Origin: Dictyostelium discoideum
Taxonomy: Eukaryota
Length of the DNA stretch: 64,000 nucleotides
Direction of reading: 5' to 3'
Assembly: GCA_000004695.1 (NCBI GenBank)
Contig: CM000153.2
Location: 1,600,001 to 1,664,000 of the forward strand
Of this stretch, positions 6,039-64,000 are shown piece by piece; the first letter of the stretch is position 1, and each line of letters begins with the position of its first letter. The notes beneath the pieces were generated by a model. That model was not told where the DNA came from and did no database searches. It saw only the letters and a list, made by a program, of their open reading frames with translations. The translations under genes and the position numbers were made by a program.

Positions 6039-6468
6039 TGGAATACAAAATCAAAAGAAACAATAAAATAAAATAAAATAAAATAAAATAAAATAAAATA
6101 AAATAACTAAATATATATATAGAGAGAGGTGTGTGAGTGGGGGTGTAGATTTACAAACCATTATTTTCTTTAAAAGCAGTGTATAAAAGTAATTTATTGG
6201 TATTCTTTGTTTTTAATGAAACTTTAGTGAGTACTGATGCACAAACTTGTTTTGTTTTATCATCTTCGTTCACTCTTAAAGATTTATAACTGCCATCTTT
6301 AAAAAAAACTTTAATCACAACATCCTGTTAAATTAAATTAAATTAAATATTTAAAAATAAATTAATTTAAACAATAATTAATATTTCACCTTTTTTTTTT
6401 TTTTTTTTTAATTATGTATAAATTTAAATCTATTCATTAAAAATTACATGTGCTACTTACTGTTGATC

Positions 6469-10128: not shown

Positions 10129-11458
10129 TTAAGCGGTAGTGGTAACATCTGGAGTAGTTGCGGTGGCATCTCTTGGTTCTGGAACTAAAGCGATTTTAAC
10201 AGAGAGTTCTCTACTTTCAACAGAGAGTTTGTTAAGGGTGAGACCTTTTTGTTGATTGGCAACATCATCGAATTCGACGAAACCGAAACCTTTGCTTCTG
10301 TTGGTGTGTTTGTTGACAATGACATGAGCACTCTTTGGTGAGCAATCTTTGAAGGTTTCTAATAATTTAACATCATCAAAAGAGTATGGAATGTTTCTGA
10401 CAAAGAGGGTAGTGGTACTTTGTTGTCTGTCAGCAGTGTTGGCAGCTGGTCTTCTTTCTCTCTTTGGTTTAGAGGTTTTGGTAGCTGGAGCAGCGGCGGT
10501 TGAGGCAGCAGCAGTGTTGGTGGTGGCATCGGTGTTGGTGGTGGTAGTGGCAGCTTTGACGTCTTTGGTGTTACGTCTGGCATTTCTACGTTTGGTGGTG
10601 GTATTACCATTTAAAGTTGGTGATGCTTCAGTGGATTCAGTAGTAGCATTTTCGCCAGTGGTGGTGCTGGTTGGTTTTGGTGTTCTAGTCTTTCTGGTTG
10701 AAGTTCTCTTTGGTTTGCTTTCGGTACTCTTTTCACGAGCGATTTCAACATTGACTTGTTTACCGTCGAATTCTCTACCATTGATGGCGGCAACAGCTTT
10801 ATTGGCAGTTTCTAAATCTTCCATATCAACGAAACCAAAAGTGTTACTCTTGAACTTCTTTTTAATGATTCTAACACTTAAACTATAATATTTTTTTTAT
10901 TTTAAATAAAATTAATATTAATATTCAAAAAATAAAAAAGAGTTTATATAAAATTATTATTAAAAAAAAAAAAAAATTAAAAAAAAAAACAAGAATTGGG
11001 TTTGAAATTTTTGAGAAAAAAAAAAAATAATTAAATGTTTTGCAAGTTATCCTTTTTTTTTTTTTTTTTTTTTTTTTATTTATTTTTAGGTTTCACCATT
11101 GAGTTTCATTGCATATCACATTGTTTCCTTTGACCTTTTTTTAAAAATTTTTTTTTTTTTTTTGTGTGTGAAAAACGAGCGAAAAAAAACGGGCATAAAA
11201 ATAGTGTGTTTTATTATTGATTTTTTTTAAAAAAAAAAAAAAAAAAAATAGTGTATTGATTTTATGTAGTATTTTTTTTAAAAATATATATTTAGATATA
11301 TAAAAAATTAATTGGTTTTTATTTACTTACACTTTACCGAATTCAGCAAAAGCAGTTTCTAAAGTTGAGGATTCAACATTTTCAGTTAAGTTACCAACAA
11401 AAATTCTGTGGGCTGGAGTAGTTGGGGTGGTGATGGTGGTTTCGGATGGAGCAGACAT
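10129..11458 (-). CDS. RNA-binding protein with two RRM domains. Two exons: 11458..11331 and 10876..10129, about 292 aa
   Basis: Exon 1 reads 'MSAPSETTITTPTTPAHRIFVGNLTENVESSTLETAFAEFGKV' (RNP2 'IFVGNL') and ends at a GTAAGT donor. A 454-nt AT-rich intron follows. Exon 2 reads 'VRIIKKKFKSNTFGFVDMEDLETANKAVAAINGREFDGKQVNVEIA...' (RNP1 'NTFGFVDM'). The second RRM is 'TTLFVRNIPYSFDDVKLLETF...RSKGFGFVEFDD'. A Thr/Ala/Pro-rich linker separates the two. The plus-strand ORF 10349..10888 is antisense noise. Confidence 0.7.
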
Positions 11459-11571
11459 GACTTTTTCTTTCTATAAATTGTCTAGAAATGAGGGAAGGGA
11501 AATAAAAAAAAAAAATATAAAAAAATTATATTAAACAAATATGTATGTGTATGTATTGAAATTGGACTTTG

Positions 11572-12572: not shown

Positions 12573-12602
12573 TTATTTATCTATTTATTATTTAATCAAG
12601 CT

Positions 12603-13308
12603 CTAAAAGACACCTCCACAAATATTTAAAACACATGCTCCAATAGTGAGTGCAGAGGCAATAACAATTGCAATCCAACTGGTGGTTGGACCTTGGTAAT
12701 AGTTGTCATCAGATCTTGCGAAATCAAATCTACCATTATCATTATTACAAAATTGATCTTTGAATGCATCAGAGTCGTATCTATTTCTGCAATCTTTTTT
12801 TGATGCATTTTGGACACCCTATTAAAAAAAAATTTTAAAAAAAATTAATATTAAAATTATTATTTTTTAATAAATATAAAATAAAATAAATAAAAAAACT
12901 TACCAAAAAGATGAACATTGAAAGTAAACAACAAATAACGGCAAGGATTAAAATGAATTTACCAATCATTGGAAGAATACTACCGAGGATTGGAATTTTT
13001 TCGAGAATACCAAAACCAGAGAGTAAAGTGATAACAGCGGCAATAATAAGGACAATCCAAGCAAGGATATCAAAAGCCAATGAAGCATTAAAGATGGCAT
13101 ACATATTTTTATTATCTTCTTTTACACTCTTTGGAATAGAATTTGTGTATGTTCTGGTGCCATCATCAGTTCTAATTTGATTATATTTAATTAATGATGA
13201 AGTATCACCAATTTCATATTTATACCAATAACTGGCAAAGGCAATAGTACAACAAACTAAAGCCAATAAAATTAAAACAAAGCTAACAAATGCTAAAACT
13301 TTTGCCAT
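12603..13308 (-). CDS. Four-TM membrane protein, paralogue A of a tandem pair. Two exons: 13308..about 12904 and 12818..12603, about 206 aa
   Basis: Exon 1 reads 'MAKVLAFVSFVLILLALVCCTIAFASYWYKYEIGD...MYAIFNASLAFDILAWIVLIIAAVITLL...SMFIFL', followed by a GTAAGT donor. An 85-nt AT-rich intron ends in TAATAG. Exon 2 reads 'GVQNASKKDCRNRYDSDAFKDQFCNNDNGRFDFARSDDNYYQGPTTSWIAIVIASALTIGACVLNICGGVF*'. The splice is supported by collinearity with the unspliced paralogue B ('MFIFCGLSNARKNDCKNQ...SFGFVVAASGLSLIASIIAIVCGVFV'). In this region my reading and the ORF track disagree by 1 nt. Confidence 0.6.
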
Positions 13309-13536
13309 TTTTTTTTTTTTTTTTTTTTTTTTAATAAAATATTTAATATTAAAATAAATTTATTTTTTAAAAATATTATAGGTTTAATAAATAAATAAAA
13401 AAAAAAATTAACTGATTTTTTTTTGTTTTTTTCGTGCCAACTGTTTTTTAAACAATGATTAAAAAAAGTATCAAAATTATTTTTAAAAATAATTTTTCTA
13501 TTAATAAAAAAAAAAAAAAAAAAAAATTAAATAAAA

Positions 13537-13569
<33 letters not shown>

Positions 13570-14013
13570 TATTTTAAACTAATTTATTTGAAAAAAGGAA
13601 CCCCAAACCGCCAGTTAGATTTTTTTAGTTTTAAAATGATTTTAATTTTTTTAATGATTTTAATTTTTTTAATTTTTTTTAATTTTTTTTATTTTTTTTT
13701 TTTTTTTGTTTTTCAGATAACTTTGGAAAATTGTCTGAAAATCATTTTTTGTCTCAAAAATCAAGTGTTTTACGACAGTTAGGGCGCCTACACAGAATTG
13801 TAAATCCTTCAATTTTTCTTTTCTTTTTTTTTTTTTATCTTAATTTATTTTTTCAAATAATATTTATTAATATTTTTTTATTTCTTTAAATTTCTATTTT
13901 TAATCAACATTATTTTATTTTATTTATTTTTTATTTTTTATTTTTTATTTTTTTTTTTTTATTTTTTTTTTTTTTATTTTTATTTTTATTTTTTTTTTTT
14001 TTGGTTGACAGAT

Positions 14014-15272: not shown

Positions 15273-15546
15273 TTTTTCTGATTTGCAATAGAATGAATTA
15301 ATTCTGACGGTTTTATTTTTTGACATTTTTTTATTATTTTATTTTTTATTTTAATTTTTTTTTTTTCAAAAATAATGTCAACTTTTTATAATAATAATAA
15401 TAATGATAAAAAATTTAATAAAAAAAAAAAAAAAAATAATATTTAATTAATTTGAAATAATTTGGATTTATTTATTTATTTGTTGTGTTTATTATTTTTA
15501 AATTATTATTATTTTATTTTTATTTTTATTATTTTTTTTTTAATTT

Positions 15547-17128
15547 TTAAACATTAAGAATAATGGATCTGATTGGAGCATAACCATTTGGAGTGTTTAG
15601 TGAGATCACCAATTGTTCAGTACCAACATATTTGGTTAAGATTGGAGCATTTCCAATATCACTTGGTATTAAAATATCAAACTATGTTATTTAAGTGGTA
15701 ATAATAGTAAAAACAAAAATAAATAAATAAAAAAAAATTAATATTTTGTTTTCTTATAATTATTATTATTATTATTATTTAAATAACACTTTAAAATATA
15801 TACTTACATGACGTAAAAATCCTTCACCCTTTGCTCTAATTGCAATATTACGATGAGAATATAAGTTATTATATTTAAGAATTAATTCTGCTTCTTTATC
15901 CATTAATTTTTTTAAAAGTTTCTTTTTTTCAACAAAGAACCAAATAAAAAATGGAATCCATAAAACAACACCAAACAAAAAGCATGTTCCTATAATTGCT
16001 AAAAAGAACAAAACAGTAAGACCATGGTTAAACTAATTTTAAAAAATGAATAATTATTAATATTAAAAAAAAAAAGTTATTATTTTTTAAAATTATAATT
16101 TTAATTAAAAATATATTATACTTACATGACATTTTAAACTTTGGAAATCTTCAACCATATTATATACTTCAGTTTCAGTTAAATAATTATATAAACTTAA
16201 ATCATAATAAAAGTTAAAACCATCATTTCCACCTAAATTAAATTTCACTAAGAAAAAAAAAAAAAAAAAATTTTAAAAAATTTAAAAATTTGTTAATAAA
16301 TATCATTCATTGTATGTATGTATGTACGGATGTTTTAAAAAAAATTTATACTTACCAAATCTTTTACCAATTATAGTATTTGCTTTTAAAACTGCAGTAC
16401 CAGATTCATTTCTAAATCCATAATCAGTGAAAAATAAAGTATCTGGGAATGGTTCCATAATTAAAGCATTTTTACCATTATCAAGTGGAATTGCTTGAGA
16501 AAGGACTACTGGGGGGGATATCTGGATATACAAGGTTAACACATGCTTTTGCACCTAAATAACTACCAACTTCATGTAATTCAAATTTAAGATTTCTTCT
16601 TGAAACTTGTTTATTTAAATATTCAATACATATATTAAAATCATTAGTTAACTTTAATTGTATACAAATATTTATAAATAAAAAAATAATTAGTATATAT
16701 TATTAAATATTATTTTTTTATTTTGTTTTGTTTTTTATAATAAAAAAATAATTACAGTTTTTTTAAAAGAGAACCATCTAATAACTTCAGAGATTGAAAT
16801 TATTAGTGCAGCAATGAGACCAATGAAATAATACATAAGTGGTGTTAGTATTAAAAGATAGGAAATAAAATGTCTTTGACAATTATTTGACATAATTTCT
16901 AAACATCTTAAATATTCTATTTTTAAAAAAATATTAATTTTAAATTTTATTAATAATTTTACAAATTTATTTATTTTTTTATTTTTTTTTTATTTTTTTT
17001 TTTTACTTGGAAATATTTTAATTACCTTTTGGAGGAATAATACCAGTTAGTTCCCTTGGGAAAAATTCACTATTAAATTCTCCATATCTATATTGTCTTG
17101 GAGTTGACTTGATTTTAAGGATACCCAT
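15547..17128 (-). CDS. Six-exon multi-pass membrane protein of unknown function, about 314 aa
   Basis: Minus-strand exons, approximately: 17128..17026 (MGILKIKSTPRQYRYGEFNSEFFPRELTGIIPPK); 16916..16756 (EYLRCLEIMSNNCQRHFISYLLILTPLMYYFIGLIAALIISISEVIRWFSFKKT); 16554..16356 (VQKHVLTLYIQISPPVVLSQAIPLDNGKNALIMEPFPDTLFFTDYGFRNESGTAVLKANTIIGKRF); 16247..16126 (..GGNDGFNFYYDLSLYNYLTETEVYNMVEDFQSLKCH); 16032..15808 (FNHGLTVLFFLAIIGTCFLFGVVLWIPFFIWFFVEK...GEGFLRH); 15681..15547 (FDILIPSDIGNAPILTKYVGTEQLVISLNTPNGYAPIRSIILNV*). All junctions are GTAAGT or GTAATT donors with AG acceptors. Introns are 79-126 nt, and exon lengths sum to 945 nt in frame. Track ORFs 15775..16011 and 16303..16554 are exon pieces. 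I do not recognise the family. Confidence 0.55.
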
Positions 17129-41894: not shown

Positions 41895-42234
41895 AATTCT
41901 GAAAAAAAAAAAAAAAAATAAATAAATTAAAAATAAATCGCACAAAAAAAAAAAAAAAAAAAATAAAATACAATAAAAACAATTTATTAGGGATATTTAT
42001 TTTAAAAAATGTATAAATAATTATTTTTTTTTTATAAAAATGGTTTAGAAAAAAAAAAAAAATATAAAAGAATACAAAAAATAAAATTAATTATATAAAA
42101 TAAAAAAAAAATAATTTTTTTATAAATTTTTAAACAATTCTTTTTTTTTTTTATTATTTAATTATAATTAAATTTGAAATGTCATTTTATTGGAAATATT
42201 CTAAGGTATTTTTTTAGGAAAGCTTAGGGAATGA

Positions 42235-42440
42235 TATGGTCATCTATTTTCGTAATGTCATAGTGCATAGATAAATCTTTCCTTTCTCTGACACTAGATT
42301 AATATTGATCATTTTTTATTTCCCTTTGGATATGATAGTATTGATATGAACATTAACTTTTCTAAATGATATAGTGCATAGATAAATCTTTCCTTTCTCT
42401 ACCATTAGATTGGTTAGGGTACATATCATCATATTACTTC
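42235..42440. repeat. Non-AT-rich intergenic island with a direct repeat
   Basis: The exact 30-mer 'atagtgcatagataaatctttcctttctct' occurs twice, about 115 bp apart (about 42258 and about 42373). The flanks are related ('tgtcatagtgcatag...' and 'tgatatagtgcatag...'; '...ctagattaatattg' and '...ttagattggttagg'). No ORF is present, and the island lies between the EME1-like gene and the F-box-like paralogue. Confidence 0.5.
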
Positions 42441-53716: not shown

Positions 53717-55898
53717 ATGACAAATCCAAATCAATTCATAATAGACGCATTAGAATTAATAATCAAAAATAGGAGTAGTTATCATTTTCAAAGGAATTTA
53801 AAAGTAGCAATTGATAGTATTAAATTATACCCAATGCCACTGAAAACAAAAGATGATATTAAACTTTTAAGAGGGTGTGGTCCGACAATTGTTGATATCA
53901 TTTTTCAAATAATTCAAAGTAATAAAAATAATAATAATAATAATAATAATAACAATAACAATAACAATAATAATAATATTACCAATAATAACAATAGTGA
54001 TGGTGGTATTCCAAAAGAACTTGAAAATTGTAAATTTCATTTATTATTATTATTTATTATTATTATTTTTTTTCTTATTAAATAATAATATTAATAATTA
54101 TAAATATTTTAAATATGTCTATAGATATAGCACCAGAATCAGTAAAAGAATTTTTAATATCAATTGATCAAAGTTTTGTTCAATATTTACCAAAACTTGA
54201 AGAAGCAGGTTATAATAAATTAAATTTCTTAAAGAATTTAAATGAAAAGGCTATGGATAAATTATCAATACCATTAGGTCACCAAACACCAATATTAGAA
54301 AATGCGAAAATTTTAAAATGTATTATTATTATTTATAAACCTAAATTTCAATTTATAATTCCATTTAAAACAAATACTAACTAACCTAATTCTATATTAT
54401 TATTATTAAAATTATATAAAAGTATACTATGATTATACAAAACTAAATAATAATAGTAATAATATTATTAATAATTATAGTTTAGATGGTAATATGATAA
54501 CTTTAATTGGTAAACCATATATTGATATTGACGATTTAAAAAAGAAATGTTCAGAAGATGTTTTTTTAAAAGCATTAAGTTCATTATTTAATCATAAGAT
54601 TAAGACGATACATGTTGAACATAATGAAATAACAGCAATCACTGAAAGTCATTCAATTCCTAATACAACATATAAAATTAGATTTGAAATTTCACCTGAT
54701 GGTACAATAGTTAGAGATCATTGCGAATGTAGATATCTAAATAGTACAAGATGGTGTAAACATAAAGTATCAGTATTTTTAATATTTAATGAAAATACTG
54801 GTGAAAGAGGTAAAAGACTATATTGTCAATCAACTTCACCAACATCACCAACATCACCAACTTCACCAACATCACCAACATCACCAACCCCACCAAAGCC
54901 ATCAAGACCAGTAACGAAATTATCACCAATTACAAGCTTAACATCTAAAAAATCCCCAAATAATAATAATAATAAAAAAGAATATACACCAGCACATAGA
55001 TCAGGAGCATGGGCAATTTTACTTGCATTATATGATAATGAAATATCAAATGGTAATGATAATGATAGAGGTAAAAGATACCTTTTAAAAGAAGAAATAT
55101 TAAGTAATGGTAATAAGTATCTTTCATCTGGTAGAATGGATACAGGTGGACATTGGCTTTCGAATAAAACATTAATTGATCATAATTTAATTAGTAAATC
55201 TGGTTCACCACTTCAATTTATATTAACAAAAACAGGTTATGAATTAGCAAGAAAATTGAAATCATTTGAAGATAGTTCCACTGATAATAAAAATAAAGAT
55301 GATTGTGATAATAATAACATTGATAATGATAATGGTAGTAATAGTAGTAAAGATGAAGGTAGTGATGAAAGTTGTGATAATGATAATCAAATAACTATCA
55401 CTACAATTGATAAAAGAAATCCCAATTGGAAAACACAATTAAAAAATAAAACCAATAATATTAATAATAATAATAATAATAATAATACAAATATTGTTAA
55501 AAATAATAATAATAACAATAATAATAATAATAATAATAATAATAGTAATAATAAAAATAATAAACGTCGTGATAGTGATAATAATGATAATTTTAGTAAT
55601 GGTAGTGAAGAACGATTATTTTTAGAAAGGGAATTATTTAATGAAAATTGGAGTGATTCTGATGAAGAGTTAACTCAATTTATGGTTGATAATACAGTGT
55701 TTCCAAATTCAAAGGTTAAAGAATTATTATATAATGAAAGGGAGGTAATAATTGATAATGTTTTATTAATTGTAGATAATAGAGAAGTAATGGATAAAGA
55801 TCAATCAGATTTATTGGATAAACTTAGAAGTTCAAATATTCAACTTGAAATTAGAAAATTACCAATTGGTGATTTCATTTTCATTGCAAAATGTAGAT

Positions 55899-55929
<31 letters not shown>

Positions 55930-55949
55930 TGATAATGATAATGATGATA

Positions 55950-55981
<32 letters not shown>

Positions 55982-56680
55982 GATATTGTTATAAATAGAG
56001 AACCATTTGAATTAATGTATGATATAATAATTGAAAGAAAGAAATTAGCAGATTTAGTATCATCTAGAAAGGATGGTAGATATAGAGAACAAAAACAAAG
56101 AATAAAAACATTGAAAAAGTTTGGATTGACAAATGCAATCTATTTGATTGAAGGTGACAATTCAAATGGTGCAATTCATACAGATATTTATGAAGACTCA
56201 ATAATGGAGACATTGATAGAGGATGAATTCATAGTTCAATTAACTGATGGATTGGATTTAACAAAAGAGTATCTTTTGAATCTTTATGATCATTTCAAGA
56301 AATCAAAGTATCGGTCACTTTCGACATTAAGATTCGCAGATTATGAACAAATTCAACAAGTATCATGTTCAATGAAATTAAAAGATTTATTCGCTCTACA
56401 ATTACTTCAAATCGATGGTGTTACACCTCCAAAAGCAAAAGCAATCATTAATAAATACCCAACACCAAGACATTTGGTTGAAGCTTATAATAATTTAATT
56501 AATGAAATTGAAACAAGTGATGAGGAAACTTTAAATCAATCAAAAAATTCTCAAGATAAACTATTGGAAAATTTAACTTATTCTCAAAGATTTAATGGTA
56601 AAAAATTAAAAATTGGTCATGACATTTCAAAATTAATTTCAATTCTTTATAATGATGAAAATCAATATCAATTTGATTGA
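53717..56680 (+). CDS. mus81: MUS81 structure-specific endonuclease catalytic subunit (ERCC4/XPF-family nuclease, N-terminal HhH, winged helix). Three exons: 53717..54029, 54125..54319, 54486..56680, about 964 aa
   Basis: Exon 1 reads 'MTNPNQFIIDALELIIKNRSSYHFQRNLKVAIDSIKLYPMPLKTKDDIKLLRGCGPTIVDIIFQ'. Human MUS81 has 'NPLFVRWLTEW...[35 protein letters not shown]'. Exon 3 has the winged helix 'YTPAHRSGAWAILLALYDN' (human 'YWPARHSGARVILLVLYRE'). It has 'LPIGDFIFIAK' (human 'LHVGDFVWVAQ'). It has the catalytic ERK signature 'YDIIIERKKLADLVSSRKDGRYREQKQRI' (human '[29 protein letters not shown]'). It has the C-terminal HhH 'LQLLQIDGVTPPKAKAIINKYPTPRHLVEAY'. Donors are GTAAAT (54030) and GTATTA (54320); both 195-nt exon 2 and the exon 1 to 3 junction keep phase 1. 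Confidence 0.8.
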
Positions 56681-58817: not shown

Positions 58818-58818
<1 letters not shown>

Positions 58819-59324
58819 TGACAGAATTAAATAGTAATAATAATAATACGGAAAACATAGAAAACCAACAAAATAATAATAATAATACCAATAATGCAGT
58901 TGTATTTGGATCAAAATATAAACATAATTTAAGATCCACAGTTTCGATTGAAAGAACACCAAATAAATATAGTGATATAATTGATGTAAGTGTAATCTAA
59001 CAATTCTTTTTTATTGTTTTTCAATTTCAATAATTTCTAAAAAAACAAACAAACAAATAATTTAGTTACTATTATCACCAGATTTAGAGATTGTGTCATC
59101 ATTATGTTCGACAACATTAGTTAGAGAAACAGTACCAAATTCAGTTCATATATCAGAATATTTAATTGTTTTTTTCGAATATCATTGTAATTTAAAATCA
59201 TCATATATATTAAAATGGGCTATCGATAAAGAAATTGAAAATACATGTATGTCAAAAAACAAAAAACAAAAAACAAAAAACAAAAAACAAAAAACAAAAA
59301 ACAAAAACAAAAAACTAAAACCTA

Positions 59325-59362
<38 letters not shown>

Positions 59363-61825
59363 TTATTATTATTATAGCCAATTCAGCTACATTATTTAGA
59401 GGATTAAGTACAGCAACAAGATTAATTTCAGCATTTTATAAAAGAGTTGGAGAAAGTTATTTGAAATATTTATTACAACCATTTGTTATTGATCTTTGTA
59501 GTAGAAATTTTTCATTTGAAATTGATCCGGAAAAAGCAGGAAAGGGTGTAAATATTCAAGCAAACTTGGAAAAATTAATAACAATTACTCAACAACTTTT
59601 AGATAAAATTTTAGATTCTGTTGATCAATGTCCTTTGTAAGTTTTTAATTTTTATTATTTATTATTATTTTAATTTTAAATATTAATATGTAATTAATAA
59701 ATAAATAATTTTATAGACCAATAAGACAAATTTTAAATCATACACAAGAAAAAGTTGAAAAAAGATTTAAATCAATGAAAACAACAGTAGTTGGTGGATT
59801 TATATTTTTAAGATTTATATGTCCAGCAATTGTTGCACCAGAAGCATTTGGATTAATACCTAGAGAAGAAGAACCAACCTCTGAAACTAGAAGAGGTTTA
59901 GTATTAGTTTCAAAGTTACTTCAAAATTTGGCAAATGAAATGCCATTTGGTTCTGGTATTAAAGAGGAATATATGTCTTATTTAAATGATTTCATTACAA
60001 ATAATTCAACAAGAATTCATGTTTTCTTTGATAGTTTAGCTCAAGATCCAACTCAACAACAACAACAAATACAACCATTACAACAACAACAACAACAACA
60101 ACAACAACCTTCATCAACTTCTACAAATCTTAATGCCACAAATAATAATAATAGTAATTGTAGTAGTAACCATACAAGTAGTAATAATATTGGAAGTGGT
60201 GTATCAACACCAAAGTTAACAAGTACACCATTGGGTTCTGTTCAACAATCAAGTGGTAACCATAATGAAGATTCAAATAGTAATAATAATAATAATACTA
60301 CTAATACTACTACCACTACTAATAATAATAATAACAACAATATAAATAATAACAACAACAATAATAATAATAATAGTAGTAATAATAAATTAAATTCAAT
60401 TATAATGACTGAGGATTCAATAACCGATAATTTAAATGTACTTATGAATCAAATCATAGAAAATAGAGAGAAAATTGAAAATTATATACAAGAGAATGGA
60501 AATATAGATTCATCATCTGATATTATTAAAAGATTGGATACCTCATTACAAGCTGCAAAACAAAAAGCATCATATTTTAATTTTTGGGGAAGAGGAAAAG
60601 ATAAGAGTAATATTAGCGGTAGTGGTGGTGGTGGTGGTGGTAGTAGCGGTGGTCCTACAACAAGTAATGGAAAATTAAAGAAATCACCATCTGCTGGAGT
60701 AGTTTCCAATTCAAATCATATTCAACAATTACAAGAAAAAGAAAGAGAAAAAGAAAGAGAAAAAGATAAAGATAAAGAAAAAGATAAAGATAAAGAAAAG
60801 GATAAAGATAAAGAAAAACATGCTAGTCAAAAGAAATTACAATTAAGTCAATCACAACATACTTTAGTATTAGATGGTATAAGTACTAATGGTGGTAATA
60901 TTAATAATAATAGCAATAATAATAAATCTCTTTTAAAAAATCAGGGTCAATTATCAGAAGAATTGGAAATGAGAGATCAAAAAGAAGTTGATAATTTAAA
61001 TTTAATGGCAGAGAATTCAAGATTAAAAAAAGAATTGGAAGATGCAAAATCAAGAAATAATTTATTAAGAAAGTTGAGAGAAGAATTAGAACGTGAAAAA
61101 AGTGAAAAAAAGGAATTGAAATTATTAATTAAAAGGTGTAATGATAGATTGAAATCATTGGATGATCAATTGGATTTAATTAATGATTTACAACCTTGGG
61201 TTGATGATAATCCTCCAAGTGGTAATCATGATTTACAATCGTTGATTGAAGAAACTCTTGGTGTTGGTGGTAGTTTATCAAATAGAAAGAAATCAAATTC
61301 TTCACTTGGTATATCAAAAGTTCGTGGTTATGATACTGCTCCAACAACTCCAACCAATACAATCTTATCTTCTTCAACTACGAATATACCTTCAATTACA
61401 AATGCAATGATTAATCATAATAATATTAATGTTAATATTTGTGCTATTAATGGAAGTAAAGATACTACTAGTAGTAGTACTTTAATATCTGCAACTTCAA
61501 CACCAACAATATCAATCGTTGATAATTGCACAACCGCTACATCTTCATTACAACCATCACCACAACCAAATTCTCAATCTGTAAATTTAAATCATTCAAC
61601 AAATTATATTCCACATTTAGATGTTTCTTGTGATAGTAATAATAGTAGTACTACAAGTAGTTTTTATAATAATCAAAATAATTTAAATTCAAATAACAAT
61701 ATAAAGAAATCATCAACAAATCAAAGTATATCTGAAAGTTTAATGTCTGAAATTTCTGAGGCTGATGAAAGTAAATCTGGTAGTAATATTTCAATTAGTA
61801 GTGCCACAATTCATTCAAATAGTGG

Positions 61826-61863
<38 letters not shown>

Positions 61864-62275
61864 GCGGCAGCAATGGTAAAGGTTCAAATTCAACATCAGG
61901 TCTAAGTAGAAAAAATTCAACAACTTCTGAAATGTCAATGGCTGACCCAACAAATTATGAAAATCAAAATTTAATAATTCAAACTGTTGTAGAAGGTGGT
62001 GAAATTTTAGATGATTCTGCTTGTGATTTATTGGAATTCTTAAAAGAAGTTGCATCAAAACAAGAATTACAAAAATCTAAAGAAAGACAAAGACTTCAAG
62101 AAGAAAAAGAAAATAAAGCCAAAAATTCTGTATTCTTTAAATTCTCCTCAAAATTCTCTTCAAAAAGGAGATCCAAAGATGGAAAAAATCAACCACTCTC
62201 TCCACCATTATCATCACAAAATAGTCAACAAGAAAAAGATTCTCCAAATTCTGGTGCAGCATTATCTTTAAATAA

Positions 62276-62279
<4 letters not shown>
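58818..62279 (+). CDS. Ras GTPase-activating protein (RasGAP domain) with a long coiled-coil and low-complexity C-terminal region. Four exons: 58818..58985, 59066..59246, 59378..59636, 59717..62279, about 1057 aa
   Basis: Donors are GTAAGT (58986), GTATGT (59247) and GTAAGT (59637), with acceptors TTTAG, TATAG and TTATAG. The product contains the RasGAP signature 'TVVGGFIFLRFICPAIVAPEAFGLI' (consensus FLRFINPAIVSP). Upstream of it is the GAP helical core 'NSATLFRGLSTATRLISAFYKRVGESYLKYLLQPFVIDLC'. Downstream are Gln/Asn tracts, an '(EKDKDK)n' repeat and heptad-rich 'ELEMRDQKEVDNLNLMAENSRLKKELEDAKSRNNLLRKLREELEREKSEKKELKLLIKRCNDRLKSLDDQLDL'. Confidence 0.75.
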
Positions 62280-62306
<27 letters not shown>

Positions 62307-62691
62307 GAAAAACAATTAAAAACAATTAAAAACTTGTACATATAATATTATATATATATTTTTTTTTATGCACTGTATAACAAAGAAAAAAAAGAATAAA
62401 TAATTTAAAAAAAAAAATAAAAAAAAATATATCTTTCCAGTTGATTCAAAAATAGTTTTTTTTTGCCTTTAATGTCCAAACTCTGATTAATCAAAAAAAA
62501 AAATATAGTTTTTTTTTTTTTTTTTATTAGGTTTTTAATAAAAATTATTAATATTTCAGACCTAGATTCAGATGTTTATCATTAAAAAAATGGTTGCTTA
62601 GATTTTTAATTTTTTAAAAAATAAATAATTAAATTTTTTTTTTTTTTTGATAAAATACACCACCTGGCTTTTTAATGATATAAAAAAGACA

Positions 62692-62746
62692 GTTGACGAA
62701 GGTTTCTTTGAATGTAAGGAAATGTTAGATTTGCTGTAAGGTCAAC
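62692..62746 (-). ncRNA. Class I RNA gene, the dictyostelid-specific ncRNA of about 55 nt, copy A
   Basis: The minus-strand transcript reads GTTGACCTTACAGCAAATCTAACATTTCCTTACATTCAAAGAAACCTTCGTCAAC. It has the conserved 5' GTTGACC and the CCTTACAGCAA motif. Its 3' CGTCAAC pairs with the 5' end to close the terminal stem. A T-run follows (TGTCTTTTTT), and a DUSE box lies 73 nt upstream on the same strand. Confidence 0.7.
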
Positions 62747-62818
62747 TTTAATGTTTCTCACATTTTCTTAAAATGATATAAACATATAAAATTGAAAACA
62801 TTAAAATTAAAAATAGAA

Positions 62819-62827
62819 TTATGGGAT
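62819..62827 (-). promoter_or_regulatory. DUSE (Dictyostelium upstream sequence element) for Class I RNA copy A
   Basis: The plus strand reads TTATGGGAT, which is ATCCCATAA on the minus strand. It matches the [AT]CCCA[CT]AA consensus, is 73 nt upstream of the copy A 5' end, and sits in an otherwise AT-rich spacer. Confidence 0.55.
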
Positions 62828-62934
62828 CCAATCCTCCTAAATTCTTTTAAATTAATAAAAATAATTAATTTTGTTTGAAAATTCTTTTTTTTTTTTTTCT
62901 TTTTTTTTCTCAATTTTTTTTTTTTTTCCCAAAA

Positions 62935-62942
62935 ACCCATAA
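62935..62942 (+). promoter_or_regulatory. Consensus DUSE oriented towards the GC-richer block starting near 63000
   Basis: ACCCATAA matches the [AT]CCCA[CT]AA consensus. A second CCCA motif (AATCCCATTT, 62962-62971) lies 27 nt downstream. This DUSE is about 110 nt from the copy A DUSE and in divergent orientation to it. Confidence 0.4.
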
Positions 62943-63004
62943 AAAGTTTTAGTCAAATACCAATCCCATTTTTAAATTTTAATTAAATATATTTTCAATG
63001 GGCA

Positions 63005-63245
63005 TATCAGGACATCGAGTTTAAAACCTATTCAGACTCCAGAATACAAATTAATTTGAGCGGCAACGTTCATATCAATCTACACTTAACAAATCATCAG
63101 ATGGTTAAAAAAATGCTGAGAAGTAACAGCATTAAAAAAAAACATTTAGACCACAGTTGAGAGTCTTAAAATCCCAACCAGTTAGTAGAGACTAAAAATC
63201 TACAAACAATAAACTCGATCTGATAACTGAAATGTCTTTTTTTTT
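63005..63245 (+). ncRNA. Candidate DUSE-driven small RNA gene (unassigned class). About 240 nt, ending at a T10 run
   Basis: AT content drops abruptly, to roughly 60%, exactly 60-70 nt downstream of the DUSE at 62935. No ORF is present. The block contains a perfect 6-bp hairpin ATGCTGAGAAGTAACAGCAT (63125-63144) and terminates at GTCTTTTTTTTTT (63237-63249). The minus strand of 63017-63110 additionally shows box C/D-like features (CUGAUGA, then about 60 nt, then CUGA, flanked by AACC/GGUU), which I list as an alternative reading. Confidence 0.35.
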
Positions 63246-63537
63246 TTATTATTTTTTTTTTATAATGGTAATAGAAATGGAAATGGTAATGTGACATCCC
63301 TATTTACATCAACAAAAACTATATCATATCTACAGAAACCTACTTGCAATAAAAGAAGTTCAAGAAGAAAAAAAATAAATATAAAAATAAAAGTGTGATA
63401 ATAATTTTATTGATAATAATAAATAATATGTACATCATATTATTATAAATAATATTTACTAATTTATTTTTTTAATATATATTTTAAATTAAAAATTTTT
63501 TTTTTTTGAAATGTGAATGCAATCACAAAACAATTAA

Positions 63538-63590
63538 GTTGATCCTACAGCAATTCTATCACTATACATACAAAAGAAACCTTCGTCGAC
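63538..63590 (+). ncRNA. Class I RNA-like copy B. Degenerate, possibly a pseudogene
   Basis: The sequence is GTTGATCCTACAGCAATTCTATCACTATACATACAAAAGAAACCTTCGTCGAC followed by T16. It is related to copies A and C. The conserved motif is altered (CCTACAGCAA, lacking one T, and GATC for GACC). No consensus DUSE lies at about -70; only AATCACAAA lies at -10. Confidence 0.45.
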
Positions 63591-63607
63591 TCTCTTTTTT
63601 TTTTTTT
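63591..63607 (+). terminator. T-run (T16) immediately 3' of Class I-like copy B. An analogous T8 run follows copy C at 63943-63950 and a T6 run follows copy A on the minus strand
   Basis: An oligo-T run directly abuts the 3' end of each of the three Class I copies. I read it as the termination signal. Confidence 0.4.
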
Positions 63608-63701
63608 TTCTTTCAATTAATATTATTTCAAGTCTAACTTTAAATTTTTAGATTTACAAAATGCAAATTGGTAATTATTGATGAGAACAATCCTATTTTT
63701 T

Positions 63702-63746
<45 letters not shown>

Positions 63747-63803
63747 CTTGACAATTTAACAAGAAATTAAAAAAAAGAGTTTTTTTTTTTATTAGTTAAT
63801 ACT

Positions 63804-63812
63804 ATCCCACAA
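63804..63812 (+). promoter_or_regulatory. DUSE for Class I RNA copy C
   Basis: ATCCCACAA matches the [AT]CCCA[CT]AA consensus, 72 nt upstream of GTTGACC at 63884. Confidence 0.55.
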
Positions 63813-63883
63813 AATTATTTTTTATTTAAAATTTCTTAAATAATTAATTTTTACAATCTTTATTTAAATGTGTAAACATTTAT

Positions 63884-63939
63884 GTTGACCTTACAGCAAA
63901 TCTTACAGTTCCTTCATTCTAAGAAAACCCTCCGTCAAC
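63884..63939 (+). ncRNA. Class I RNA gene, copy C
   Basis: The sequence is GTTGACCTTACAGCAAATCTTACAGTTCCTTCATTCTAAGAAAACCCTCCGTCAAC. It has a perfect 5'/3' stem (GTTGACG/CGTCAAC), the CCTTACAGCAA motif and a downstream T8 run. A DUSE ATCCCACAA lies 72 nt upstream. It shares about 85% identity with copy A, in opposite orientation. Confidence 0.7.
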
Positions 63940-64000
63940 TGTCTTTTTTTTAATTAATTATTTATTTTTTATTACCATCATTAAAACTTTTGGAAACAAA

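Follow-up and report, generated by a model that had tools for sequence, protein, structure and literature searches.

The Class I RNAs of Dictyostelium, a family of the DdR-21 type, are treated in Aspegren 2004, Avesson 2011 and Kjellin 2021. The present analysis concerns three copies of a sequence from this family, here called copies A, B and C, which lie within positions 62690-63945 of a 64-kb stretch of chromosome 4 of Dictyostelium discoideum AX4. This stretch is referred to as the window throughout, and coordinates are window positions unless stated otherwise; adding 1,600,000 gives the position on the chromosome. The segment is very probably the left end of a known Class I cluster, in which copies A and C are active and copy B is a dead relative from the DdR-47 lineage.

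Class I RNAs are described as about 42-65 nt in length, with a GC content of 32-41% and an invariant G at the 5' end (PMC7919456). Their loci carry an almost invariant CTGT at the 3' end, and runs of T residues are found downstream of many of the genes (PMC7919456). Upstream, a DUSE (Dictyostelium upstream sequence element) located about 60 nt before either the transcription start site or a second element, the TGTG box, serves as a Class I criterion, and the combined arrangement of DUSE and TGTG box has been reported in many D. discoideum Class I genes (PMC7919456). All expressed Class I genes have a DUSE upstream of them, and no expression is seen from high-scoring loci that lack one in the right place (PMC7919456). 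Both the clustering of the genes and the occurrence of degenerate members are features of the family described in earlier literature.

Family identity of the two intact genes

Copy A occupies positions 62690-62746 on the minus strand (sequence GTTGACCTTACAGCAAATCTAACATTTCCTTACATTCAAAGAAACCTTCGTCAACTG), copy B positions 63538-63592 on the plus strand (sequence GTTGATCCTACAGCAATTCTATCACTATACATACAAAAGAAACCTTCGTCGACTC), and copy C positions 63884-63941, likewise on the plus strand (sequence GTTGACCTTACAGCAAATCTTACAGTTCCTTCATTCTAAGAAAACCCTCCGTCAACTG). All three follow the general form GTTGA(C/T)C..ACAGCAA...CGTC(A/G)AC over 55-58 nt. An original prediction, made from the letters of the window, had placed the copies at these sites and on these strands. 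It had also assigned them to the dictyostelid Class I family of non-coding RNAs (ncRNAs) and proposed a search with covariance models and known sequences as a check; this search upholds the assignment.

In an Rfam 15 scan of the whole window, exactly two matches exceed the gathering score of any family. These are copies A and C, which match RF01414 ('Class I RNA from Dictyostelium', gathering score 41.5 bits) with 53.9 bits (E = 1.2e-7) and 51.8 bits (E = 4.2e-7), respectively. Copy B is recovered with the same family in a permissive scan of positions 62000-64000, where it reaches 27.2 bits (E = 0.022) and stays below the gathering score. A scan of the window for tRNA genes returned none. Compared with the curated sequences in the supplement of Kjellin et al. 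2021 (PMC7919456), copy A is identical to DdR-23A/B/C at 57 of 57 positions, and copy C is identical to DdR-24A/B at 58 of 58. In the annotation file of that supplement, which is in general feature format (GFF), r23C is placed at DDB0232431 (chromosome 4) 1662690-1662746 on the minus strand and r24A at 1663884-1663941 on the plus strand, which are the window positions of copies A and C plus exactly 1,600,000. The DdR-23C and DdR-24A RNAs were cloned in 2004 (accessions AJ699384 and AJ699385), and their genes (DDB_G0295575 and DDB_G0295577) have been annotated since 2004-2007. Judged by sequence identity, copies A and C are known, published Class I RNA genes, namely r23C (DdR-23C) and r24A (DdR-24A), and there is nothing new in them.

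All three copies begin with G and fall within the published ranges of length and GC content, with 57 nt and 37% in copy A, 55 nt and 38% in copy B, and 58 nt and 41% in copy C. The ends of copies A and C form a perfect terminal stem of 6 bp (GUUGAC/GUCAAC), which is present in the minimum-energy fold. In copy C, the stem is accompanied by a small internal hairpin, with a folding energy of -7.3 kcal/mol (z = -2.6). Beside the 5' arm of the stem lies the 11-nt motif CCTTACAGCAA, which is exact in both genes and occurs in the window at these two sites only, with no further site even when one mismatch is allowed. Both genes end in CTGT: the mature RNA of copy A probably includes one more U, at position 62689, giving the CUGU end, and that of copy C probably extends to position 63942 (CUGU).

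Upstream of each of these two genes, a DUSE of the pattern [AT]CCCA[CT]AA, as used in our search, is found on the correct strand. The DUSE of DdR-23C (TCCCATAA, 62819-62826, minus strand) lies 72 nt before the first G and has a DUSE score of 13.88 in Table S2 of PMC7919456; that of DdR-24A (TCCCACAA, 63805-63812, plus strand) lies 71 nt before the first G. Perfect boxes had been predicted at 72-73 nt, and while the boxes themselves and their orientation were correctly recognized, the distances need this small revision. The TGTG box AAATGTG is located at 62759-62765 on the minus strand for DdR-23C, 12 nt before the first G (a MEME site in PMC7919456), and at 63866-63872 on the plus strand for DdR-24A, 11 nt before the first G. 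It is because the TGTG box lies between DUSE and gene that the gap in copies A and C is longer than the canonical value of about 60 nt. Recomputed from start to start, DUSE and TGTG box are exactly 61 nt apart in both genes; Table S2 gives a TGTG distance of 13 and a DUSE-to-TGTG distance of 60 for r23C (PMC7919456).

Each copy is followed by an oligo-T run, as had been predicted, and each run comes 2 nt after the last annotated base. A T6 run follows DdR-23C (62682-62687, minus strand) and is a likely terminator of the RNA polymerase III (Pol III) type, while the sequence reads T15 after copy B (63595-63609, plus strand) and T8 after DdR-24A (63944-63951, plus strand).

In an AT-rich genome, such copies could also be chance similarities, or fragments of repeats or transposons. 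DUSE octamers do occur in the window at the rate expected by chance (10 matches against 9.6 expected), and a lone match is not significant; the evidential weight of the DUSE is in its fixed spacing, not in the single octamer. Against an origin by chance or from repeats stand the Rfam E-values of about 1e-7 for copies A and C, their exact identity to cloned RNAs, the geometry of DUSE, TGTG box and gene that is the same in both, and the exact 11-mer at their two sites only. We consider such an origin so improbable as to be negligible, and we retain the assignment to the Class I family.

Copy B and the DdR-47 lineage

Copy B is listed under the name ddi_can_1 at chromosome 4 1663538-1663592 (plus strand) in every version of the covariance model (CM) of Kjellin, with scores of 31.9-50.1 bits (PMC7919456). 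In Table S2 of that work, its score with the final CM is 31.9, its classifier score is 25.2 against a cut-off of 32, and its best 'DUSE' is AATCACAA, at 8 nt and with a FIMO score of -1.68. The same table records a TGTG box (AAATGTG) at 21 nt and reads of 0/0/0/0/0/0 in six RNA-seq libraries, with a read coverage of 0. The locus is absent from the curated list and from the 40 published loci, and is present only in the supplementary files of PMC7919456. Copy B is a degenerate, non-expressed Class I-like copy and has already been listed as a candidate without expression. The prediction of two intact copies and one degenerate copy agrees with the published reads, which are high for copies A and C and zero for copy B. 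The unique sequence of copy B includes the core CTATCACTATACATACAAAAG.

Upstream of copy B, the TGTG box AAATGTG lies at 63509-63515 (plus strand), 22 nt before the first G, and is a MEME site for ddi_can_1. This heptamer occurs nine times on both strands of the window (128 kb), three of the nine being at copies A, B and C, and the chance of its falling in a 25-nt span ahead of copy B is about 0.002. The predicted absence of a DUSE was confirmed: none with at most one mismatch is found within 160 nt upstream of copy B, and the matches with two mismatches in this span lie only 7-9 nt from the gene. One candidate for a DUSE remnant, ATTTACTA at about 63454, resembles a box mutated from CCC to TTT; it was rejected, being 6 nt off register and indistinguishable from AT-rich background.

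The gene body of copy B is altered at several places. Its arms, GUUGAU/GUCGAC, allow a 6-bp pairing only with two G-U wobbles; the minimum-energy fold is without the terminal stem, and the centroid fold contains only 5 bp, at -0.52 kcal/mol. The complementarity of the ends, claimed originally for all three copies, thus holds for copies A and C and fails to close a stem in the minimum-energy fold of copy B. The motif reads TCCTACAGCAA, with two mismatches, one of which is at the near-invariant T of motif position 3, and the locus ends in CTCT. Copy B had been thought to have lost one T of the 11-mer. Instead, its first 16 nt have the same length as in copies A and C, and two substitutions (CCTT to TCCT) account best for the difference: the final position of the stem has T for C, and position 3 of the motif has C for T.

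The loss of the DUSE is the best-supported cause of the silence of copy B, with the decay of the body being secondary. We prefer this cause because two of the body changes recur in curated genes. The T-to-C change of the motif is also present in DdR-51, which is expressed, and the G-U of the stem is also present in the curated DfiR-10, so that the body changes alone are not proof of lost function. A TGTG box that is kept at a locus with zero reads fits the notion that this box is not sufficient for expression, and the loss of the DUSE next to a kept TGTG box fits the DUSE as an element required for expression, as Kjellin 2021 also argues.

Copy B might instead be a live gene in unsampled conditions, with the TGTG box or a diverged upstream element replacing the DUSE. 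The exact AAATGTG at a DdR-47-like distance would suit such a gene, as would the leading G after AA, the pairable 6-bp stem, the GC content of 38%, the T15 terminator and the scores of up to 50.1 bits with earlier Kjellin models; in addition, the single substitutions of the body recur in curated genes, of which DdR-51 is expressed. However, copy B has no reads in six libraries, as compared with 10^5-10^6 reads for its neighbours, and no DUSE with at most one mismatch within 160 nt upstream, and DUSE-less high scorers are never expressed according to PMC7919456. The CUCU in place of the CUGU end and the stem that is missing from the minimum-energy fold also argue against function. A live copy B is, on this evidence, improbable, and we favour a silent relic that lost its DUSE.

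For its origin, copy B was compared with all curated D. discoideum Class I sequences of typical length (42-65 nt). The best match is DdR-47 (46/56), followed by DdR-23 (45/58, with an extra 3-nt gap) and DdR-24 (40/58), and the best match in D. firmibasis is DfiR-4, which is identical to DdR-47. The variable core of copy B (TTCTATCACT.TACAT) follows DdR-47. Within the part of Table S2 (PMC7919456) that was covered, the TGTG-to-gene spacing is 21-23 nt in copy B, r47 and DfiR-4, as opposed to 10-14 nt in most other genes. The flanks of the TGTG box are also alike, with TTTTTTTTTG-AAATGTG-AATGCAATCA in copy B and TTTTATCTTG-AAATGTG-AAAGTAATCA in r47. A parallel arrangement is found on chromosome 3: by the published coordinates, the next gene downstream of r47 is r25, which is DdR-24-like, and the pair has the order and orientation of copy B and r24A. 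By these resemblances in sequence and arrangement, copy B belongs to the DdR-47 lineage and is not a decaying duplicate of copy A or C.

The original prediction had derived copy B from A or C, through a recent local duplication followed by decay at its present site. The position of copy B between the two, 350-800 bp from each, is what such a duplication would give, and the family-wide ends and motif are present in it. Yet copy B is closer to DdR-47 than to DdR-23 or DdR-24, with a core that follows DdR-47, and the spacing and flanks of its TGTG box follow r47/DfiR-4. Its flanks are unlike those of A or C, while the similarity between A and C extends across about 265 bp, and the pair r47-r25 on chromosome 3 mirrors copy B and r24A. 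A local duplicate is accordingly very improbable; what stands of the earlier claim is that copy B is degenerate and silent, and what falls is its descent from A or C. As a member of the DdR-47 lineage, copy B would have kept its TGTG box, gene body and T run, and would have become silent with its DUSE lost, its stem weakened and CUCU in the place of CUGU.

Expression, cluster architecture and neighbouring DNA

According to Table S2 (PMC7919456), r23C has a classifier score of 69.4 and 0.33-0.63 million reads, and r24A has a classifier score of 67.3 and 0.12-0.32 million reads; as DdR-23A/B/C are identical to each other, and DdR-24A/B likewise, neither these reads nor the original cDNAs are assignable to this locus. 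This weighs against the picture of two active genes and a dead relative, and further points add to it. The silence of copy B was measured at three time points in one strain, and its body changes are shared with the expressed DdR-51 and the curated DfiR-10. The DUSE serves genes of RNA polymerase II and Pol III alike (PMC7919456), so that the polymerase is not fixed by it, and the TGTG box may act in the promoter or may mark where a precursor transcript begins (PMC7919456). Because the reads cannot be split among identical paralogues, it is from their intact promoters that the r23C and r24A loci themselves are presumed to be expressed.

We postulate that DdR-23C (minus strand) and DdR-24A (plus strand) are transcribed divergently, each from a bipartite upstream region of DUSE and TGTG box, and that initiation would depend on the DUSE. 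Termination would most likely take place at the T run directly after the gene, which possibly points to Pol III. The product would be an abundant RNA of about 58 nt, whose ends close the 6-bp stem and in which the 11-nt motif CCUUACAGCAA is predicted to be single-stranded; the exposed 11-mer would most likely be where a partner, either protein or RNA, docks. The literature describes Class I RNAs as abundant and developmentally regulated, with a mainly cytoplasmic location. DdR-21 binds Rnp1A, a protein of the RNA recognition motif (RRM) type, and its knockout disturbs early development (PMC7919456). For DdR-23 and DdR-24, which belong to the family, Rnp1A binding and an influence on early multicellular development are presumed; both have been shown for DdR-21 only.

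Copies A and C are inverted paralogous units (62672-62935 on the minus strand and 63697-63957 on the plus strand) of about 265 bp, with 72.5% identity (E = 1e-32). The unit spans the gene and about 190 bp of promoter, the upstream homopolymer tract included. Copy B matches copy A only across the gene body plus or minus 10 nt. The cluster runs past the right end of the window with r23B, r53, r26, r23A, r24B and r54, up to chromosome position 1,676,021 (published GFF, PMC7919456). The genes r23B (minus strand), r53 (plus strand) and r26 (plus strand), at chromosome 4 1,666,945-1,668,259, are arranged like r23C, ddi_can_1 and r24A in order and orientation and, approximately, in spacing, and in the published coordinates this trio lies 4.26 kb beyond the first. 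The coordinates suggest a duplicated three-gene module with a degenerate middle member in both trios, in which r53, a 32-nt 'putative' locus, is the counterpart of copy B.

To the left of the cluster lie a gene for a RasGAP-domain protein (58818-62279, plus strand; last large exon 59775-62279) and an open reading frame of 728 amino acids (54494-56680, plus strand). An orthologue of the RasGAP gene is found in D. firmibasis (75% identity), with an orthologue of the 728-residue frame upstream of it, in the same order. In the stretch 3466129-3489591 of D. firmibasis CM069766.1, a spacer of 372 bp (13464-13834 of that stretch) separates the RasGAP orthologue from a COBRA1/NELF-B gene. No Class I match is present in this 23-kb syntenic locus, about 10 kb on either side, in an Rfam search at E up to 1, and a BLAST comparison of the window tail with it returns poly-A/T matches only. 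These results are consistent with the cluster at this site being a lineage-specific gain in D. discoideum, or with its loss in D. firmibasis. The missing cluster also fits the literature, according to which synteny with D. discoideum holds for only about half of the Class I genes in D. firmibasis.

Between DdR-23C and copy B, a GC-rich island of 239 nt (63000-63238, plus strand) is a candidate for a structured ncRNA by its composition and predicted fold. Its GC content is about 33%, as compared with mostly about 14-18% in the flanking intergenic DNA. For the plus strand, the folding energy is -51.5 kcal/mol (z = -4.80), matched by none of 200 shuffled sequences, and the two ends of the island pair in a long terminal helix in the predicted structure; the opposite strand reaches a z of -1.99 only. 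A DUSE-like box, ACCCATAA (62935-62942, plus strand), is located 57 nt upstream, and a T11 run (63239-63249, plus strand) follows directly. The island contains no convincing reading frame. In an Rfam search of 281 nt around it, with E up to 10, only a chance match to snoZ30 on the opposite strand appears. No paralogue was found in the window, no counterpart in the syntenic locus of D. firmibasis, and no exact 24-mer match in metagenome contigs (0 matches). Parts of its sequence, searched for in the full text of the literature, led to a single match of no relevance, and the supplements of a paper on long non-coding RNAs contained nothing relevant at these coordinates. Consecutive feature IDs suggest that nothing is annotated between r23C and r24A in their dictyBase submission. 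Read in this way, the island might be an unannotated, DUSE-driven gene for a structured ncRNA without an Rfam family, inside the Class I cluster, which we regard as an unlikely but tangible possibility.

Further GC-rich islands, short and with 28-34% GC, lie away from long open reading frames at 6121-6240, 11301-11540, 12581-12820, 15541-15700 and 42181-42340, and are probably small exons.

As a discovery, the locus is small. Its value is in showing that the reading of sequence alone can recognize a lineage-specific RNA family together with its promoter. The additions of this analysis are the placement of copy B in the DdR-47 lineage, the loss of its DUSE while the TGTG box was kept, and the D. 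firmibasis site without the cluster.

Comparison with known systems

Set beside the Dictyostelium Class I family, copies A and C have the same length, leading G, 6-bp stem, 11-nt motif and CUGU end, as well as the same DUSE and TGTG box, T run and GC content (37-41%), with no difference. Copy B differs from the family in its DUSE, its CUGU, the exact motif and expression, and stays below the Rfam gathering score. It is of the same kind as the published putative or degenerate loci (such as r53, r43 and r54, without DUSE or motif), being Class I-like and located in a cluster without a proper DUSE.

The closest relatives of copy B are DdR-47 (r47, chromosome 3) and DfiR-4, with which it shares the core, the long TGTG spacing, the TGTG flanks and a neighbour of the DdR-24/25 type. 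DdR-47, unlike copy B, carries a stem of GCUGAC/GUCAGC, an unaltered 11-mer and a terminal CUG; its DUSE is perfect and lies 61 nt ahead of the TGTG box, and its reads number 40,000-120,000.

A more distant likeness is to genes of the small nuclear RNA (snRNA) type with an upstream promoter element, which in animal U-snRNA and U6 genes is the proximal sequence element. In both systems, small ncRNA genes have a short conserved box some 60 nt upstream, at a constant distance; the box serves genes transcribed by either of two polymerases, and those of the Pol III-like kind terminate at a T run. Unlike in snRNA-type genes, the DUSE sequence of the Class I loci is dictyostelid-specific, and the loci carry an additional TGTG box, of which Group 4 dictyostelids and the P. 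violaceum complex are the only known carriers.

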